Under the pieces are notes generated by a model that worked only from the letters and a program-made list of their open reading frames with translations, made no database searches and was not told the DNA's origin. The translations under genes were made by a program, and so were the position numbers. A stretch of DNA of 64,000 nt from Blastocatellia bacterium (GTDB lineage: Bacteria > Acidobacteriota > Blastocatellia > RBC074), in NCBI GenBank assembly GCA_035714085.1, contig DASTMP010000285.1, positions 3,659-67,658 on the forward strand, read 5' to 3'. This document shows, piece by piece, positions 2,712-54,472 of this stretch; position 1 is the stretch's first letter, and every line of letters begins with the position of its first letter.

Positions 2712-3104
2712 ATGGCCCAACGCAAAACCGAGCGGCTGACGCCGCTGGAGCTCGAAATCATGCAGGTTCTGTGGGAGACCGGCGCCGCCAATGTGCAGAC
2801 CGTACAGCAGCGGCTCAAACGTGAATTGGCCTACACCACGGTACAGACCATGCTCAACATTCTGCACCGCAAAGGGAAGGTCAAACGCTCGCTGAAAGAA
2901 CGCGCTTATTTTTACAAGCCGGCCGTCAGCCGCAGACAGGTCGTCAGACAGACGGTCAACGACCTGGTTGAGCATCTCTTCGGAGGCTCGGTGGAAAATC
3001 TGGTCATGAGCCTGGTGGAGACCAAGCATCTCACCGCCGAGAAAATGACCCGGCTAAATGAGCTCTTGAAAGAGTCTGAGGAGGAGAGCGATGCGGACGA
3101 GTAG
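2712..3104 (+). CDS. BlaI/MecI/CopY-family transcriptional repressor
   Basis: 130-aa winged-helix protein with N-terminus MAQRKTERLTPLELEIMQVLW...TTVQTMLNILHRKG, typical of the penicillinase-repressor family. It has an AGGAGG RBS and overlaps the downstream M56 sensor gene by 14 nt. Confidence 0.85.
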   Translation: MAQRKTERLTPLELEIMQVLWETGAANVQTVQQRLKRELAYTTVQTMLNILHRKGKVKRSLKERAYFYKPAVSRRQVVRQTVNDLVEHLFGGSVENLVMSLVETKHLTAEKMTRLNELLKESEEESDADE

Positions 3105-4755
3105 CCAACTGCTGTTGACCTTTTTGTTGAACGCCTGCTGGCAGATCGCCCTGATCACGGCGGTCGCCGCCTTGTGCGCATGGTTGTTGCGTGGAACGAC
3201 GGCCCGCTATCGACACCTGCTCTGGGTGACCGCTTTAACGTTCTCCTTTGGCCTGCCGGTTCTGACCTGTTCACATCTCTTAGGCGGCGCCTTTTTCTCT
3301 GAACAGCCCAGGGCGTCAGTTCGACCGGACGGTGTGGCTTTTGCGCCGACGCCTCATCTAATCTCGGACATGCAAGCGTCATTGCCAACAGCGCCGCCAA
3401 CGGTTTTGAAGGAGGCCGCGCCGTTCATCCTCATCAATATGAATGTGGCCGCCGTCGTAGTCGCCCTTTACCTGCTCTTTCTGTGTTACCGAAGCGGCAA
3501 ATTATGCATGGCCTGGAGAAGGGCGAGAAGCCTGAAACGTAGCGCTCGCCTGACTGATCTTCCCGAACACGTCCGAACAATTGTCAGAGAATCTCAAACC
3601 GCTCTCGGGGCGTCACGTGTTCGGATTCTATGTTCGACCTCGGTCCCCGCGCCGATTGCGACCGGCGGTTTCAATCCGCTGATCATTCTGCCTGAGCAAT
3701 TGTTGCTGGAGACGGATCGAGGCGTCCTGACCGCAGCCATCGGACACGAACTCGCCCACGTCTTGCGGCGCGACTATCTGCTGAACTTGATCTACGAAAT
3801 CATTTCCTTGCCCCTCTCGTTTCATCCTGCCACGGCGCTGGTGAAACGCCGGATCAAGGAGACCCGGGAACTGAGCTGTGACGAGCTGGTCATCGAAAAA
3901 CTGCTGGACGCCACAGTCTATGCCCGTTCGCTCGTCCATCTGGCCGGTTCGGCGGTCAATTCGAACCGTCCCGGTACAACCATCACCGTAGGCATCGCCG
4001 ATGCCGACATTTTGGAGGAACGTGTCATGACCATACTTAGAAGACCAAAGATCAATACTCGCCGAAGGAACTTATTGCTGATCGCAGCCACACTCTTTTT
4101 TCTCGTACTGTGCGTGGCCGCCACGCCATTCGCGTTGCGCGTAGGCGTCAACCCACAGGCCGCCGCCCTGGCGCCGGAGGGCGCCGTCGGGATACCGGAG
4201 GCCTCTGTCGTGACGGCTCAACAGGGAGACAAGCAGGAAGCCAAACAGGATGAGCGGGCGCGCGAAGAGCTGAAGCTTCGCTTAGATGCGTTGAAGCGCA
4301 AGGCGGCGGAGTTGGAAGCGGCGCGGCGACAGGAGCGGCAATTACAGGACGCTTCCTCAACACAAGAATTGCAAGAAAAGAAGGAAGCGCAGGAGCGGGA
4401 AGAAAAAGAGCGAGCAGAGCGGGAAGCGAAGGAACGGGATCCGGAATTTATGGCGCGCCGCAAACTGGAGCAAGAAATGGAGTCGATAAAACGTGAAATC
4501 ATGTCCAGACGACAAGCCGAACTGGCTAAAAAAGCGAACATCACCATGCAGCAAGCGATTCAGATCGCCATGAGTCAACAGTCCGGAACGGTGATGGAGT
4601 GTCGTTTGATCGGCGAACGGCCAGAGGGCGAGAAAGATCAGGTCTTTTACATCCTCACAATTGTTTCCCGTGATGAACCGGAGAGCGCCTCTACCCATAT
4701 GCTGATCAGCGCAGCAGATGGCCGGGTCGCCAAGACCTGGAAGGATGAGCGTTGA
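3091..4755 (+). CDS. BlaR1/MecR1-like M56 peptidase-family membrane sensor with a non-canonical C-terminus (coiled coil plus PepSY-like domain)
   Basis: N-terminal TM helices and the M56 zinc motif HELAHVLRRDY. The start is translationally coupled to the blaI-like gene. After the protease domain comes a long E/K/R-rich coiled coil and a C-terminal segment (...QQAIQIAMSQQSGTV...ISAADGRVAKTW) that resembles PepSY rather than a penicillin-binding domain. Confidence 0.8.
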   Translation: MRTSSQLLLTFLLNACWQIALITAVAALCAWLLRGTTARYRHLLWVTALTFSFGLPVLTCSHLLGGAFFSEQPRASVRPDGVAFAPTPHLISDMQASLPTAPPTVLKEAAPFILINMNVAAVVVALYLLFLCYRSGKLCMAWRRARSLKRSARLTDLPEHVRTIVRESQTALGASRVRILCSTSVPAPIATGGFNPLIILPEQLLLETDRGVLTAAIGHELAHVLRRDYLLNLIYEIISLPLSFHPATALVKRRIKETRELSCDELVIEKLLDATVYARSLVHLAGSAVNSNRPGTTITVGIADADILEERVMTILRRPKINTRRRNLLLIAATLFFLVLCVAATPFALRVGVNPQAAALAPEGAVGIPEASVVTAQQGDKQEAKQDERAREELKLRLDALKRKAAELEAARRQERQLQDASSTQELQEKKEAQEREEKERAEREAKERDPEFMARRKLEQEMESIKREIMSRRQAELAKKANITMQQAIQIAMSQQSGTVMECRLIGERPEGEKDQVFYILTIVSRDEPESASTHMLISAADGRVAKTWKDER

Positions 4756-4939
4756 TGAGCGCATTTCTTTGCAACTGCTGGAAGTCATAGGAGCGAGGCG
4801 CCTCGCTCCTATGACTTCGCCAGGGCCTAGCGCCAGCCCCATCCGCACACTTCATTCTCCATAGCTTCCAGCTTCATTCTTCATATTATTTGTTTACGAC
4901 AGCCGGCGACTGATTTTCTGCCAGTCCCTCTCAAACTTC

Positions 4940-5176
4940 CTACCGGCAAAATGGAGCGAGCTGAAATAGGCGAGGGCCGTCAGCGATCGGCGTGAGCAGG
5001 CCGGTCAGCAGCTTGACGGTGGTTGATTTGCCCGAGCCGTTCGGCCCCAGAAAGCCGAAGATCGTCCCGCGAGGCACGCGGAGATTCAGATTGCGCACCG
5101 CGGTGAATGAGCCGAATGTTTTGGTCAAACCACGCGCCTCAATCTCCCAGGCTTCCATCGTTGATCCCTCTTGCAT
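4940..5176 (-). pseudogene. ABC transporter ATP-binding protein, N-terminal fragment only (about 70 aa)
   Basis: [48 protein letters not shown] is a Walker-A/P-loop N-terminus of an ABC ATPase. The ORF stops after about 75 codons, with no Q-loop, signature motif or Walker B. Confidence 0.55.
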
Positions 5177-5619
5177 TTAGTGGTCATTGCTTCGACGCTT
5201 GCAATGCGCGACGAATGATAACAAACCAGCCCTACATTTTTTGTCCGGTAGCCGAACGATGATCAACGCCCGCAAAATTTCTGCGTCATGTTTTTGCCGG
5301 TTTCCGCCACTCCTCCATAGAACCCCCTTGCAATAAGTCCGTCACGGTTTATGCGGCCCTGCCGTGGGTAATCCGGGTAGGGCCAGGTAGTGGCCGAAAC
5401 GATGATCGCAGACGCAAAGTCTTGCGCCTCATTTCGACTTCTACCGCAACAACACTCATATGCGGTATGCTGGAATTGCAAGTTCGCGCGCCGGGATCAA
5501 AGCGCCCAGCGCCTCACCCCCTTATCTTTCCCCCCCTTATCTTTTCTCTTTCTTGCTCTATGAACAATGACGAAGCGCTGCCTGCGAGATCGCTCGCGGG
5601 AAAAATGTCGTGTCGACAA

Positions 5620-5718
5620 GAGGACACGATGAAGGGCATCCATCGCTACAAGGAGGACACGATGAAAAGTACCAATCGCTATAAACGGAACACGATGAAG
5701 AGTTTCAATCGCTACGCC
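5620..5718 (+). repeat. In-frame 3x33-bp tandem repeat spanning the start region of the BNR-repeat gene
   Basis: Three copies of (g/a)aggacacgATGaa(g/a)...(c/t)atcgcta(c/t)aa(g/a), each carrying an ATG (5629, 5662, 5695) behind a GAGGA/GGAA SD-like element. They translate as EDTMKGIHRYK / EDTMKSTNRYK / RNTMKSFNRY. Confidence 0.6.
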
Positions 5719-7677
5719 GCATTCTCGCTGAGAGCGGTAATGGCCATCACTGTTGTAATGTTTGGGATCATCCGATCAAACGATTATGTGAGCCTGGCGG
5801 CGTCGGCCGCCTTCGCCGCCGAACAACCGGCGCCAGGCGCATTACGGTGGCGGCAAACGTCTGGCCCCGAAGGCGCCGCCATCATCTCTCTGCTCAGCAA
5901 TGGCTCAAACCTCTTTGCAGGGACAATCACCAGCGGCGTATTTCGATCGACTGATCAAGGAGAGAGCTGGACAGCGATCAATGCGGGCTTACCCAGGTCA
6001 AGTATCAATTCGCTCGCCGCTGTTGGGACTAACATTTTCGCGGGGACTACCGGCGGCGGCGTCTTCCGCCTGATTAATCGGGAGGAAAGGTGGGTTGCAG
6101 TCAATACCGGCTTAACCAACCTGGGTATTAATGCGTTCGCCGTAAGCGGGACCTATATCGTCGCGGGAACACGTGGCGGCGTCTTTCGATCGCTAGACCA
6201 GGGTGCGAGTTGGACTCCGGTTAACACGGGCTTGCCGCCGAATGCGCTCATTGCCTTCCTCGCCGCTTCCGGGACGAACATTTTTGCGGTAACGGCTTCC
6301 CCCTCTGGCGGCATCTTTCGATCGGACGACCAGGGAAAGAGCTGGATTGCCCTCGATACGGGCTTCTCCATAGGGATTAGTCAATTAGCCGCCCTTGGGA
6401 CGGACATCTTTGCCGTGCTGGCGGACGGCAGGGTCATTCGATCGAGCAGTCAGGGAGAGAAATGGACATTGGTCAATACAGGGCTGCCACTGGGCGCGCG
6501 TGTTACTTCATTCGCCATGATCGGCGCAGACATTTATGCAGGGACATCTAGTCCCTTTATTAACAGTGGCGGGGTCAATGGCGGGATCATCCGCTCGAGC
6601 GATCAGGGAGAGAGCTGGACTGCCGTCGGTACAGGCTTGCCCCTGAGAGTGCAAGTCCTCGCCTCCGTTAGGAGAAAGCTATTTGCGGGGACGGCGGGCG
6701 GCGTCTTTCGCTCGACTAACCAGGGGGAGAATTGGACCTCAGCCAACGCAGGTATGATCGGCCAAACTGTTGAGTCGCTCGCCGTTGTTGGGTCGAATAT
6801 TTTTGCGGGTTCATCTGTCCTATCCAATGGCGGCGCCTTTCGTTCGGATAATAGCGGAGAGAGTTGGACGGCGATCAATACTGGCTTGCCGCCGAGTCAG
6901 GCGGTTTCTTCATTGGCCGTTGTCGGAACGAACATCTTTGCCGCCACAGGCGGGTTGTTAAGCGGAGTCTTTCGTTCGACAAACCAGGGAGAGAGTTGGA
7001 CTCCCGTCAATGCGGGTTTGCCGGCTAATGCTCCTGTTACCGCCTTAGCCGTGAGTGGGGCGAATCTCTTTGCGGGAATAGCCATTTCTCATCTTTCTGG
7101 CGCCGTTGGCGCCGTCTATCGTTCGACAGACCAGGGAGAGAGTTGGACGGCGGTCAATACGGGCCTGCCTGCGAATGCGAGCGTTACTGAACTCGCCGCC
7201 GTTGGGCCGAATCTCTTTGCGGCGCTATCCGTGAATATGTCAATTTTCAGCGCCGTCTTTCGCTCAAGCGATCAGGGGGAGAGTTGGACGGCGGTCGGCG
7301 CCGGCTTGCCGGCGACTGCTGTTGTTTCTTCATTCGCCGCTGTGGGGACGAACCTCTTTGCGGGAATAGCCAGCTCCACCATTTCTGGTGATGGCGATGG
7401 CGTCTATCGTTCGACCGATCAAGGGGAGACCTGGACGGCGGTTAATACCGGCTTGCCGCAGTTTGCCCTTATCGGTTCACTCGGCGCCGTTGGGACAAAC
7501 CTCTTTGCGGCGGTAGCTAATAACGGCGTTTTTCTTTCAACCAATCAAGGCGAGAGCTGGATGGCGGTCAATGAAGGCTTAACCGATCTGAGAGTTCAAA
7601 CGTTCGCCGCCGTCGGGGGGAAACTCTTTGCCGGGATGTTCGGCAGCGGAGTGTTCGTCGCTGACGTTACGAAGTGA
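5695..7677 (+). CDS. Secreted BNR/Asp-box repeat protein (Ycf48-like multi-blade beta-propeller, about 17 repeats)
   Basis: About 17 tandem units of about 43 aa, each with the S-x-D-x-G-x-(S/T)-W Asp-box motif (FRSTDQGESWTAVNTGLP...). A signal-peptide-like N-terminus follows the ATG at 5695. In-frame alternative starts exist upstream (5422, 5629, 5662). Confidence 0.75.
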   Translation: MKSFNRYAAFSLRAVMAITVVMFGIIRSNDYVSLAASAAFAAEQPAPGALRWRQTSGPEGAAIISLLSNGSNLFAGTITSGVFRSTDQGESWTAINAGLPRSSINSLAAVGTNIFAGTTGGGVFRLINREERWVAVNTGLTNLGINAFAVSGTYIVAGTRGGVFRSLDQGASWTPVNTGLPPNALIAFLAASGTNIFAVTASPSGGIFRSDDQGKSWIALDTGFSIGISQLAALGTDIFAVLADGRVIRSSSQGEKWTLVNTGLPLGARVTSFAMIGADIYAGTSSPFINSGGVNGGIIRSSDQGESWTAVGTGLPLRVQVLASVRRKLFAGTAGGVFRSTNQGENWTSANAGMIGQTVESLAVVGSNIFAGSSVLSNGGAFRSDNSGESWTAINTGLPPSQAVSSLAVVGTNIFAATGGLLSGVFRSTNQGESWTPVNAGLPANAPVTALAVSGANLFAGIAISHLSGAVGAVYRSTDQGESWTAVNTGLPANASVTELAAVGPNLFAALSVNMSIFSAVFRSSDQGESWTAVGAGLPATAVVSSFAAVGTNLFAGIASSTISGDGDGVYRSTDQGETWTAVNTGLPQFALIGSLGAVGTNLFAAVANNGVFLSTNQGESWMAVNEGLTDLRVQTFAAVGGKLFAGMFGSGVFVADVTK

Positions 7678-20742: not shown

Positions 20743-23700
20743 GTGTTGATGGTCTTTGCCGGACGAGTGCCGAAGGTTCAGGAGTTGGGTATGATCGAGC
20801 CGAAATTCTTTCTCAAGCCAGCGCAGGCCGTTCCGTTCGACGACGCCGAAATCAGTGAATTCTTCCGCCAATACCTGCTTGATGAATTCACGCAGCCTGG
20901 CGCGGATGTCGTCGCCAATGTCCAACAGGTGACGCACGGCAACCCGTTTTTGGTCGAGCGTCTGGCTCGGTTGATCGCGCTCGAAAGGCAGGAAGACCCT
21001 TCGTGGGACTGGTCGCGGTGGGAAGCCACTTGCGGCCATTTCCAGAGCGATGATCGCTATGGGTTGCTGTTGTACGTCACCGAAAGGCTGGCTACGCACA
21101 TACAGCCCGGCGACGAAGATTACTGGAGACTAGCGCTACCCCGTTTGCTTCACCGCGACATGGCCGAGATTCTCTTCCCGCGACAAGAGGGCAAACCGCT
21201 CTTCGGTACCTGCTTGATCGAAGCCTACGAACAGGCCGGGATAATCTACCGGCGCGCCGCGGGCGCTCCCGACGAGTACCTGTTGCCGGACGAAACCCGC
21301 AGTGCGCTCACGGCAAAAGCCCGTCGCGAAGGGTTATTACAGAGCGAGGTTGCAAGCGATCTTCATTCACGGCTTGCGCAATATTTCGACACCAATTACA
21401 GAATCGAGAATGAGTCCTTAATCAAGTCCGAAGTGGAGGGGCGGTCGCTGAACAAAGATCACCCCGCGCTCATTGAGTCCGCCTACCACATTGTTATGAG
21501 CTATGTTCCCAGCCGCCAGGAGAAGAACAGAATTGATCCGGAGCGATTCTGGCGATCAATGGCAGGCTCGATCTCGCTGAATAATTTGGACAAGAAGGTT
21601 AACGCCGCCAGGTTGAGCGGTATGTCTCAATCCGATCTCGAACAACTTTTGAAAGGCTTTGACGAAGAGGCCGAACGCCTCGATAAACAGATATCATTCC
21701 AGGTCGGCGAGGAACTACGTGAGTTGGGGCGCGCAGGACGGTTGGTTACAGGATGGGCAAACAGCCCCAATTTTTTTCAGGAAAGGATCAAAGAATCCAA
21801 TCACAAAGCCTTCTGGTTAGGTCAATACGCGGCATTCCTCACAATCCCTAAGCGTGACAATGACGAAGCCGAGCGATACTACAAGCTCGCCATCGAGGCC
21901 GATCCGAACCACGCAAACAACCTGGGCAACTACGCGGCGTTCCTTATGAACCATCGGCGCGACAATGGCAGGGCCGAGCACTTCTTCAAGCTGGCCGTTG
22001 AGGCTGACCCGAACGATGCGAATCACCTCGGCAACTACGCATGGTCTCTTGTAAAGAATCGGCGTGACAATGACGAAGCCGAGCGATACTACAAGCTCGC
22101 CATCGAGGCCGACCCGAACCACGCAAACAACCTGGGCAACTATGCGGCGTTCCTTATGAACCACCGGAGCAACTATGACAGGGCCGAGCGATATTACAAG
22201 CTCGCCGTCGAGGCTGACCCGGACCACGCAAACAACCTCGGCAACTACGCGGTGTTTCTTGAGAAGAATCGGCATGACAATGGCGAAGCCGAGCGATTCC
22301 ACAAGCTCGCCATCGAGACTGATCCGAGCCACGCAAACAACCTCTGCAACTACGCGACGTTCATTGTGAAGAATCGGCGTGACAATGACGAGGCCGAGCG
22401 CTTCTTCAAACTCGCCGTCGAGGCTGATCCCTATAATGTAAACAGCCTCCGCAACTACGCGCTTTTCTTTGAGAAGAATCGGCGTGACTACAACGAGGCC
22501 GAGCGATACTATAAGCTTGCCATCAAGGCTGACCCGAAGGACGCCCGCAACCTCGGCGACTACGCAGCGTTCCTTATGAACCATCGGTGTGACAATGACG
22601 AAGCCGAGCGATACTACAAGCTCGCCGTCGAGGCCGACCCGAACCACGCAAAAATCCTCTGTAACTACGCGCTGTTCTTTGAGAACAATCGCCGTGACTA
22701 TGACGAGGCCGAGCGATACTACAAGCTCGCCGTCGAGGCCGATCCGAACTATGCAAAAATCCTCGGTACCTATGCGGCATTCCTTATGATCCATCGGCAT
22801 GACAATGGCGAAGCCGAGCGGTTCTACAAGCTCTCCGTCGAGGCTGACCCGAACGACGCGAACAGCCTCGGCAACTACGCGGTGTTCCTTGAGAAGTATC
22901 GGCATGGCTACGACGAGGCCGAGCGATACTACAAGCTCGCCATCAATGCCGACCCGAACCACGCGAACAATCTCGGCAACTACGCGGTGTTCTTTGAGAA
23001 GAATCGGCGTGACTACAACGAGGCCGAGCGATACTATAAGCTCGCCGTCGAGGCCGACCCGAACCACGCCCGTAATCTCGGCAACTATGCAGCGTTCCTT
23101 ATGATCCATCGGCGCGACAATGACGAGGCCGAGCACCTCTTCGAGCGCGCCATCGAGGCCGACCCGAACAGCGCGAACAACCTCGGCAACTACGCGGTGT
23201 TCCTTGAGAACAATCGCCGCGATAATGGAGAGGCCGAGCGATACTACAAGCTCGCCATCAAAGCTGCACCGAACGACGCACACTGGCTCGGTGCCTATGC
23301 GTTGTTCCTTAAGAAGAATAGACGTGACGATAAGGAAGCCGAGCGATACCACAAGCTAGCCGTCGAGGCTGACCCGAACGATGCCCTCTGGCTCAGCGGG
23401 TATGCGGTTTTTCTACAAGCTCAACGTGGAAACTATGACGAAGCCGAACGATTCTACCGCCAGGCTATAGCTTTGAACCCGGCTGACGCGAATTCGCGTG
23501 GTAACTTTGCTCAGATTTTGTTGGCGCAAGGGCGGAAGGAAGAGGGCAGAGAAATGATCGCCGCCTCGTTTGACGCGTTAGCCGACAACATCTCGCCCGG
23601 ATTGTTGCCGGAGCTTTGGTTCTATCGTTACGCCCATTTTGGGAGCGGGTGGCCGGCGGCTCTATCGGAATTGAAGAAGGTTTTGCTTGCCGGGGATCGT

Positions 23701-23850
23701 TCGCCAGGTTGGAGTCTGCAACCGAACATAGAGCGGGCCGAAGTCGATAGGCATCCGAACGTCGCGTTGCTGAAGACGCTCGCCCGCGTAATCAACGAAG
23801 AGGCTGGGATAGAGGAGTTGGAGGTTGACCCTGAATGGCGCGCGGCATGA
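20743..23850 (+). CDS. C-terminal portion of the same STAND NTPase (sensor/arm region) followed by a long TPR array
   Basis: Begins ...NFFNDAPVLMVFAGRVP. This is the continuation expected after a Walker B, and it is in frame with 20038..20706. About 20 near-identical TPR-like 40-aa units follow (AERYYKLAVEADPNHANNLGNYAVFLEKNRRDYDE). Confidence 0.6.
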   Translation: MLMVFAGRVPKVQELGMIEPKFFLKPAQAVPFDDAEISEFFRQYLLDEFTQPGADVVANVQQVTHGNPFLVERLARLIALERQEDPSWDWSRWEATCGHFQSDDRYGLLLYVTERLATHIQPGDEDYWRLALPRLLHRDMAEILFPRQEGKPLFGTCLIEAYEQAGIIYRRAAGAPDEYLLPDETRSALTAKARREGLLQSEVASDLHSRLAQYFDTNYRIENESLIKSEVEGRSLNKDHPALIESAYHIVMSYVPSRQEKNRIDPERFWRSMAGSISLNNLDKKVNAARLSGMSQSDLEQLLKGFDEEAERLDKQISFQVGEELRELGRAGRLVTGWANSPNFFQERIKESNHKAFWLGQYAAFLTIPKRDNDEAERYYKLAIEADPNHANNLGNYAAFLMNHRRDNGRAEHFFKLAVEADPNDANHLGNYAWSLVKNRRDNDEAERYYKLAIEADPNHANNLGNYAAFLMNHRSNYDRAERYYKLAVEADPDHANNLGNYAVFLEKNRHDNGEAERFHKLAIETDPSHANNLCNYATFIVKNRRDNDEAERFFKLAVEADPYNVNSLRNYALFFEKNRRDYNEAERYYKLAIKADPKDARNLGDYAAFLMNHRCDNDEAERYYKLAVEADPNHAKILCNYALFFENNRRDYDEAERYYKLAVEADPNYAKILGTYAAFLMIHRHDNGEAERFYKLSVEADPNDANSLGNYAVFLEKYRHGYDEAERYYKLAINADPNHANNLGNYAVFFEKNRRDYNEAERYYKLAVEADPNHARNLGNYAAFLMIHRRDNDEAEHLFERAIEADPNSANNLGNYAVFLENNRRDNGEAERYYKLAIKAAPNDAHWLGAYALFLKKNRRDDKEAERYHKLAVEADPNDALWLSGYAVFLQAQRGNYDEAERFYRQAIALNPADANSRGNFAQILLAQGRKEEGREMIAASFDALADNISPGLLPELWFYRYAHFGSGWPAALSELKKVLLAGDRSPGWSLQPNIERAEVDRHPNVALLKTLARVINEEAGIEELEVDPEWRAA
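21817..23400 (+). repeat. About 13 tandem, highly similar 120-bp coding repeats (TPR units)
   Basis: The unit gacaatgacgaagccgagcgatactacaagctcgccatcgaggccgacccgaaccacgcaaacaacctcggcaactacgcg... recurs every 120 bp with few substitutions. The antisense 511-aa ORF at 21817..23352 is an artefact of this array. Confidence 0.7.
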
Positions 23851-27581: not shown

Positions 27582-27710
27582 CAGAGAGCGGGAGAGCGGG
27601 AGAGCGAGAGAAGAGGAGGCAGGTTGAGGGGAAGAAAACTGTCGATCTCCTTGTCTCTCCATCCCTCGCTCTCCCGCTCTCCCGCTCTCCCACTCTCTCG
27701 CTCGCTGTAC
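27582..27710. terminator. Long GA/CT-rich palindrome between convergent genes (bidirectional terminator candidate)
   Basis: gagagcgggagagcgggagagcgagaga ... tctccatccctcgctctcccgctctcccgctctcc form an about 30-bp stem around an about 40-nt loop. It lies between the stop codons of the EF-hand gene (+) and the transaldolase gene (-). Confidence 0.5.
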
Positions 27711-52190: not shown

Positions 52191-52270
52191 AGTAGGGAAT
52201 AGGGAGTGGGGAGTGGGGAGTGGAAGGACAAAAGTTCCCCCACTCCCCATTCCCTATTCCCTATTCCCCT
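52191..52270. terminator. G-rich/C-rich palindromic element between convergent stop codons (bidirectional terminator candidate)
   Basis: agtagggaatagggagtggggagtggggagtgg - loop - cccactccccattccctattccctattcccc. It lies between the stops of 50010..52184 (+) and 52280..53713 (-). Confidence 0.5.
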
Positions 52271-54435: not shown

Positions 54436-54472
54436 GGGTTTCAGGTTTCAGGCGTCAGGTTTCAGGTTTCAG
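54436..54472. repeat. 5x tandem heptamer (ggtttca; one ggcgtca variant) at the truncation junction of the ADOP fragment
   Basis: ggtttcaggtttcaggcgtcaggtttcaggtttcag, immediately 5' (on the - strand) of the fragment's first codon. Confidence 0.5.

Follow-up and report, generated by a model that had tools for sequence, protein, structure and literature searches.

The gene for a BNR propeller protein in the 64,000-nucleotide stretch of Blastocatellia DNA analysed here (hereafter the window) begins within three head-to-tail, in-frame copies of a 33-bp unit, each of which comprises a Shine-Dalgarno (SD) element, a spacer, an ATG and seven codons (MKxxNRY) of the n-region of an export signal. Comparing this array with those of related loci, we propose with moderate confidence that it is an old, inherited triplication of the initiation module, in which the start moved to the middle copy and the two other copies have been decaying in different ways. 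It is an ordinary tandem duplication in an unusual place, the ribosome-binding site and the start codon, with an unusually legible comparative record, and it reveals no new mechanism.

The repeat array in the window

The array occupies positions 5617-5715 (Table 1). The initial annotation had described a start region triplicated in frame at 5620-5718, which is the same array in a register shifted by 3, and reading the window sequence bears out both the triplication and the three in-frame ATGs: those at 5629, 5662 and 5695 are in frame with the ORF whose stop is at 7677. Tandem Repeats Finder reported a period of 33, 3.1 copies, 78% matches and a score of 119. The array is far above chance level, since 50 of 66 positions match at period 33, against a mean best value of 31.5 and a maximum of 36 over 200 window shuffles. 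A repeat search put the identity of the two other window copies to copy 1 at 79% and 70%, and alignment of all three leaves two invariant cores, ACACGATGAA and ATCGCTA. The encoded peptide reads QEDTMKGIHRY-KEDTMKSTNRY-KRNTMKSFNRY and is followed by a hydrophobic segment. Both the unit and its leader occur only once in the 64 kb, with no paralog inside the window, and on this ground a dispersed repeat or cassette shared with other genes was rejected.

Table 1. Features of the window around the repeated start region.
Feature	Position	Strand	Description and basis
BlaI-type repressor gene	2712-3104		
M56/BlaR1-like gene	3091-4755		
ABC ATPase remnant	4940-5176	-	78 codons (N-terminal)
Leader, read as non-coding (5' UTR and/or promoter region)	5454-5616	+	conserved; aligned in 19 loci (alignment A3)
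CT-rich 15-nt direct repeat	5514-5543	+	TCACCCCCTTATCTT x2; repeat search; block length varies in A3
Inverted repeat/hairpin	5581-5600	+	CCTGCGAG-ATCG-CTCGCGGG; predicted in MFE and centroid structures
Local hairpin	5607-5630	+	predicted, 8 pairs, -12.3 kcal/mol; 3' arm is GACACGAU of copy 1
Repeat copy 1	5617-5649	+	CAAGAGGACACGATGAAGGGCATCCATCGCTAC; weak SD (AGAGGA), ATG 5629, codons MKGIHRY
Repeat copy 2	5650-5682	+	AAGGAGGACACGATGAAAAGTACCAATCGCTAT; SD AAGGAGGA at 5650-5657, 5-nt spacer, ATG 5662, codons MKSTNRY
Repeat copy 3	5683-5715	+	AAACGGAACACGATGAAGAGTTTCAATCGCTAC; eroded SD AAACGGAA, ATG 5695, codons MKSFNRY
Rest of export signal	5716-5817	+	AAFSLR, hydrophobic core AVMAITVVMFGII, RSNDYVSLAASAAFA ending A-x-A before AEQ; translation
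Mature BNR propeller protein, including stop codon	5818-7677	+	Pfam matches, homologs

Gene product and export signal

The product belongs to the BNR/Asp-box, Sortilin-Vps10-like family of beta-propeller repeat proteins, with Pfam profile matches above threshold for Sortilin-Vps10 (1.2e-24, 87.3 bits, cut-off 33) and BNR (4.2e-21, 71.8 bits, cut-off 27) and a match to PSII_BNR (9.3e-09, 35.4 bits). Nearly all of the 6355 homologs found at E<=1e-3 present a signal peptide of 20-30 residues which is directly followed by a Q-W-x-Q-T-x-G-P-x-G-G strand. In the window protein the equivalent strand is RWRQTSGPEG, and before it come the repeat peptides, the hydrophobic core and a conserved AFA/AEQ motif. 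The position of the strand in the homologs, together with the core placed after the repeats, indicates that the repeats lie in the n-region of an export signal, which may be either a cleaved, Sec-type signal peptide or an N-terminal anchor. The remainder of this signal (5716-5817) is strongly conserved among relatives, as is its A-F-A/AEQ site, located 15 residues past the h-region. Whichever of the three ATGs is used, the n-region is basic, and its net charge, read from the sequence, is +2 for 7 residues, +6 for 18 and about +7 for 29. It had been suggested that the last ATG alone yields a functional signal. This finds no support, because the hydrophobic core is common to all three N-termini and the longer forms simply add basic residues, so that no version would be signal-less.

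Related loci and copy number

Relatives were collected through one scan of a genome collection and one of metagenomes, which gave 22 related loci with the same N-terminus and leader: L001, from a Blastocatellia metagenome-assembled genome, and L063-L083, from soil and rhizosphere metagenomes. This sample is small, phylogenetically non-independent and includes paralogs (L068 and L072 are on one contig). The BNR repeats dominated a search with the full-length protein, whose best match had 50% identity and which missed the orthologs; these were found by searches with the N-terminal region, and the related protein clusters have 1-2 members each. Where the flank suffices, synteny extends over the end of the M56 gene, minus-strand ABC genes and the BNR gene, and over the 420 nt past the repeats the identity of the 22 loci to the window is 74-91%. 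L002, a Blastocatellia homolog that is further removed (47% identity at the amino acid level), has an ordinary single start and a short n-region.

The initial annotation had called for a comparison with orthologs in search of copy-number variation, and such variation exists: the 22 loci have one, two or three units, plus 14-nt sub-repeats. Counted in register with the anchor GCCGCATTCTCGCTG, there is one unit in L076-L081; two in L063, L064, L065 (where both are identical), L067 and L074; two with an extra 14 nt and the first copy out of frame in L072 and L075; and three in the window, L070, L069, L001, L066, L068, L071, L083 and L073. In L072 and L075 the upstream out-of-frame copy forms a 16-codon uORF whose TGA overlaps the main ATG (ATGA). 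L073 has between its copies 1 and 2 a perfect array of 5.8 repeats of 14 nt (ATCGCTATAAGCCA, at 1264-1344 of that locus), which derives from the AATCGCTAYAAG end of the unit, and its copy 2 begins with TTG. In L001, a palindromic MITE-like element of 136 nt (481-620; fold of -68 kcal/mol) with 9-bp terminal inverted repeats (GCGGTTTGC/GCAAACCGC) sits inside copy 1, and relatives of this element are found elsewhere in sister loci (L069 320-440 and L064 901-954).

The neighbour-joining tree places the single-copy loci as the outgroup, with several changes of copy number inside the ingroup. L063, the nearest relative of the window (about 90%), has two units. The pairs at 97.6% and 96.0% identity have equal copy numbers, and differences appear only at 93% or below. 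Position by position, the window copies have their counterparts in other loci: copy 2 agrees at 32/33 positions with copy 2 of L073 and L068, copy 3 agrees at 18/18 positions of its post-ATG part with the last copies of many loci and corresponds to the single unit of outgroup loci L076-L081, and the best matches of copy 1 are the first copies of other loci. Similarity among the three window copies is no more than 70-79%, below their identity to positional counterparts elsewhere (up to 32/33), which argues that the triplication is older than these lineages and was inherited. The array would thus be an old tandem duplication with no recent slip. The earlier proposal of slipped-strand variation stands insofar as copy number varies among relatives, but recent or active slippage here does not agree with the divergence of the copies or with the equal numbers in pairs at 96% identity or more. 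Two-copy loci with near-identical "F-type" units look like the outcome of a collapse followed by a fresh duplication, or of gene conversion. Judged from these alignments, the region behaves as a recurrent hot spot of duplication and deletion on species-level time scales, but not demonstrably as an active slippage tract in this genome.

Initiation signals of the three copies

The energies of the SD duplexes were computed with an assumed anti-SD, ACCUCCUUU, as the host 16S rRNA lies outside the window, and amount to -5.8 (5629), -11.2 (5662) and -3.5 kcal/mol (5695). Values of this kind are matched by 13.6% of the 1627 ATGs of the window for copy 1 (-5.8), by 0.6% for copy 2 (-11) and by 33% for copy 3 (-3.5), so the recognisable SD of copy 3 is gone. 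The real genes of the window have strong SDs (AAGGAGG-type at 3091, 10292, 16902, 37735 and 38744), and copy 2 is the sole copy here with a predicted canonical one. The statement in the initial annotation that each copy has its own SD-like element thus applies to copy 2, where it is strong, and to copy 1, where it is weak, but fails for copy 3, which is at background level. The local hairpin predicted at 5607-5630 would place the SD of copy 1 in its loop and pair the first two bases of ATG 5629; its GTGTC/GACAC arms are conserved in most loci. Partition-function estimates of SD-AUG accessibility did not separate the three starts (0.47, 0.39 and 0.44). A scan of 4700-5900 for sigma-70 promoters returned no match; if transcription started downstream of 5662, 5695 alone would be usable.

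Starts further upstream were considered and rejected. The ATGs at 5560 and 5605 have SD energies of +2.2 and -4.3 kcal/mol, and in L001, L064, L065, L066, L070, L074 and others the leader contains stops or lies out of frame. The three copies are therefore not the ordinary coding sequence of a longer N-terminal domain, the arrangement that the initial annotation had set against its own reading: 5560 has no SD, and in many orthologs the leader is interrupted or out of frame.

Comparative evidence on the start

Across the loci, a strong SD accompanies the penultimate in-frame copy in 14/14 cases. For the last copy, SD erosion affects 7/14 loci that have an in-frame start upstream (the window and 6 others) versus 0/8 loci without one (Fisher p=0.022, with no correction for phylogeny), and the erosion follows five substitution patterns, AAACGGAA, AAAGAGAA, AATGAAGA, AAGGATGA and AAGCAGAA. 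Frame-breaking changes, namely a +1 nt shift, 14-nt insertions, the array of 5.8 repeats of 14 nt and the 136-nt palindromic insertion, are all located upstream of the start that we infer, and none was seen across the loci between the penultimate and the last copy. In copy 1, the ATG has become ATT in L001 and L069 and a His codon (CAY) in the translated fragment P0128; the copy is out of frame through a +1 frameshift in L066, L068, L071 and L083, and is also broken by the MITE-like insertion in L001 and by the 14-nt array in L073. Codon changes among orthologs, in tiny counts, comprise 4 synonymous and 3 nonsynonymous ones for copy 2, against 2 and 9, respectively, for copy 1, a contrast that is only suggestive. 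Independent gene calls on the related contigs begin the gene at the penultimate copy (MKSTNRYKENTMKNFNRY...). The view of the last ATG as the proper start is hard to reconcile with these data, namely the SD eroded here and in 6 other loci, the strong SD of the penultimate copy in all 14 and the choice of the callers. Strong SDs at the penultimate copy and also at the last one occur in 7 loci, so dual initiation is possible there.

On these grounds ATG 5662 is the best-supported translation start in the window, 5695 is most likely the ancestral start, now reduced to an internal Met or a minor secondary start, and 5629 is probably a decaying upstream relic or a minor start.

Alternative readings

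We consider it rather unlikely that 5695 alone is the true start, with an n-region of 7 residues, and that copies 1 and 2 are relics in the 5' UTR, serving perhaps as standby or enhancer elements or as short upstream initiation sites. Such a start would fit the last copy well: its start codon is kept in 21/21 loci with a located array (ATG in 20, GTG in L074), its ATG is the most conserved start codon of all and gives a textbook short n-region, like that of L002 and other distant homologs, and it is the sole unit in the outgroup loci. The uORFs of L072 and L075 also indicate that upstream copies can persist as uORF or otherwise non-coding elements. However, an exclusive start at 5695 would have to work with an SD at the level of a third of all ATGs when a canonical SD lies 33 nt upstream in frame, and it would leave aside both the confinement of last-copy SD erosion to loci with an in-frame upstream SD-ATG and the interval between the penultimate and last copies, which is never frame-broken. 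The use of two or all three ATGs, producing proteoforms with n-regions of 29, 18 and 7 residues which differ in export efficiency or membrane retention, seems to us decidedly unlikely. The three in-frame ATGs do exist, two adjacent strong SDs are found in L063, L064, L065, L070, L001 and L069, and Salmonella and E. coli offer precedents (PMC11005335), but only one of the three window sites has a real SD, copy 1 has been repeatedly disabled in relatives with no visible constraint, and all three N-termini share one hydrophobic core, so that none would be signal-less.

We give very little credence to a last alternative, in which the units are regulatory sites (direct repeats bound by a protein or an sRNA) or a phase-variable tract whose copy number tunes or switches expression. 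In its favour, first copies that are out of frame still preserve the cores ACACGATGAA and AATCGCTA, inverted repeats occur in a conserved leader, and the perfect 14-nt array of L073 and the identical 33-bp units of L065 could still slip. Yet the conservation of the units, about 80-90%, is no higher than that of the adjacent leader and coding sequence; the window copies are too diverged for efficient slippage, and a step of 33 bp keeps the frame; copy number is the same in all pairs of loci at 96% identity or more; the motif has no further occurrence in the 64 kb, and neither an Rfam family nor covariation was found; and the promoter of the BlaI-type repressor has different repeats (ACTCCTAAA).

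The reading that we prefer, an inherited triplication with a displaced start, would account for these observations through the following steps. The ancestral gene would have had one unit, a state retained by the single-copy relatives, and replication slippage or unequal recombination would have piled further SD-ATG modules upstream of it, in frame. Here the ribosome most likely initiates mostly at the middle copy, and the precursor would begin MKSTNRYKRNTMKSFNRY-AAFSLRAVMAITVVMFGII..., with an n-region of 18 residues and net charge +6 in its export signal; this extended n-region may still support export. The ATG of copy 3 would then encode an internal Met, its SD being free to erode, and copy 1, weakened and embedded in a hairpin, would give at most a minor longer isoform. 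A broader extension of this reading is a long shot: the stacked modules would form an evolvable "initiation cassette", in which the number of copies and the frame of the upstream ones tune translation or export of this surface or periplasmic propeller protein, and the near-perfect arrays and uORFs of L065, L073, L072 and L075 would act as hypermutable switches in Blastocatellia populations.

For annotation, any of the three ATGs could be picked, and the comparative pattern argues for 5662; with this start, the n-region would be basic and 18 residues long instead of the textbook 7. For evolution, the loci offer a natural series of a start site that moves upstream by duplication of its own initiation module, after which either the downstream SD erodes, for which at least five routes are seen, or the upstream copy is disabled by loss of its ATG, by frameshift or by insertion of a mobile element. 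Finally, for secretion biology they provide natural length variants of the n-region (7, 18 and 29 residues) of one signal peptide to compare.

The leader upstream of the array

The array is preceded by a leader of about 160 nt with long invariant blocks in alignment A3 (e.g., CTCTATGAACAATGAC), including a 27-nt stretch (5560-5586) that is identical in L001. This leader is not coding, since it has stops in several orthologs and stands in different frames to the gene from locus to locus. With L001 it shares about 87% identity, slightly more than the coding sequence does (about 75-85%), a difference that calls for no special function. The pairs of the outer arms (CTGCG-N8-CGCAG) of the hairpin predicted at 5581-5600 are kept in 19 loci, with no compensatory changes. 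A riboswitch- or thermometer-like structured leader found no support: the Rfam search of 4700-6200 gave no meaningful match, the z-scores of the leader fold (0.78 and 0.15) are not unusual, and in the 19 loci the covariation term was -0.47 kcal/mol with 1 of 14 predicted pairs compensatory (in one sequence), these sequences being too similar for a strong negative. Neither a curated family nor covariation thus marks the leader as a structured RNA. The CT-rich repeat at 5514-5543 is a second small length-variable repeat, whose copy number ranges from 1 to 3 in the orthologous leaders. Upstream of the leader, a segment of about 180 nt (5262-5440) is present in the window and in L063-type loci and missing from L001.

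An operator for the BlaI-type repressor and M56 sensor was also considered and found no support, the repressor promoter having other repeats and nothing like GACACGA or AATCGCTA. That promoter region (2641-2711) presents a textbook TTGACA-17-TTATAC(T) and candidate operators, namely repeated ACTCCTAAA boxes, a CTAAATATTTAG palindrome and a CTCCTAA/TTAGGAG inverted repeat over the SD, which are unrelated to the motifs of the BNR leader.

Comparison with known systems

In-frame alternative initiation generates N-terminal proteoforms with different localisation, as for PagC (L/S) and SseL in Salmonella and for mrcB, infB and clpB in E. coli (PMC11005335). As in those cases, several in-frame start codons lie close together at the 5' end of the gene studied here, and the choice among them would alter the N-terminal targeting region; unlike in those cases, the putative starts are tandem copies of one SD-ATG-n-region module, and the hydrophobic core is always kept. 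Variable-number tandem repeats, or minisatellites, occur in bacterial genes and contingency loci (reviewed in PMC3899988). The array resembles them by its head-to-tail units, whose number differs between related genomes, and by the near-perfect arrays of L065 and L073. It differs in that its 33-bp in-frame unit spans the ribosome-binding site and start codon and that the window copies are diverged, and it departs from contingency loci on each count that we compared. Near-identical units are found in some relatives only (L065 and L073) and not in the window; copy number is equal in the closest pairs and varies only between lineages at 93% identity or below; and there is no on/off frame switching of the main ORF, since a 33-bp unit is a multiple of 3 whose gain or loss keeps the frame and the 14-nt sub-repeats of relatives touch only the upstream copy.

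The units of mycobacterial MIRU-type intergenic minisatellites carry start and stop signals that overlap the flanking genes. The tandem units described here likewise bring translation signals, and the short ORF formed by the upstream unit in L072 and L075 terminates in an ATGA at the main start, a layout that is classical for coupling; unlike MIRUs, to which they have no sequence relation, they come from the gene's own start region and are restricted to a single locus instead of forming a dispersed element. Extended signal peptides with long n-regions are also known, for example the ESPR of autotransporters. The window protein shares with them a long basic N-terminal extension before an otherwise normal hydrophobic core, but there is no sequence similarity, and its extension is a repeat of the native n-region with a length that varies among close relatives.

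Genomic surroundings and other repeats

In the orthologous loci L069, L072 and L078, about 2.2 kb of minus-strand ABC-transporter genes separate the M56 gene from the BNR leader. The window keeps only the 78-codon remnant, suggesting that about 2 kb have been deleted from it. After the stop of the M56 gene there is a perfect palindrome of 38 nt (4781-4818). Elsewhere in the window, a 105-bp tandem repeat of 14.6 copies (21852-23379, 76% matches) lies in an ORF of 1035 aa (20743-23850) and would encode protein repeats of 35 residues. Long hairpins built from inverted short tandem units were found at 27584-27703, 40320-40396, 52191-52269 and 54437-54472, sites which include a (GGTTTCA)5 array; the energies were -85 kcal/mol for (GAGAGCGG)n/(CGCTCTCC)n, -61 for (GGGAATC)4/(TCCCCAY)n and -74.5 for (AGTGGGG)n/(CCCCATT)n. 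Such repeat-built stem-loops may be a genome-specific class. Finally, in the homologs P0028 and P0098 the BNR propeller is fused to M56/BlaR1 peptidase or ECF sigma-factor domains, a hint that the adjacency of the M56 sensor and BNR genes in the window may be functional.
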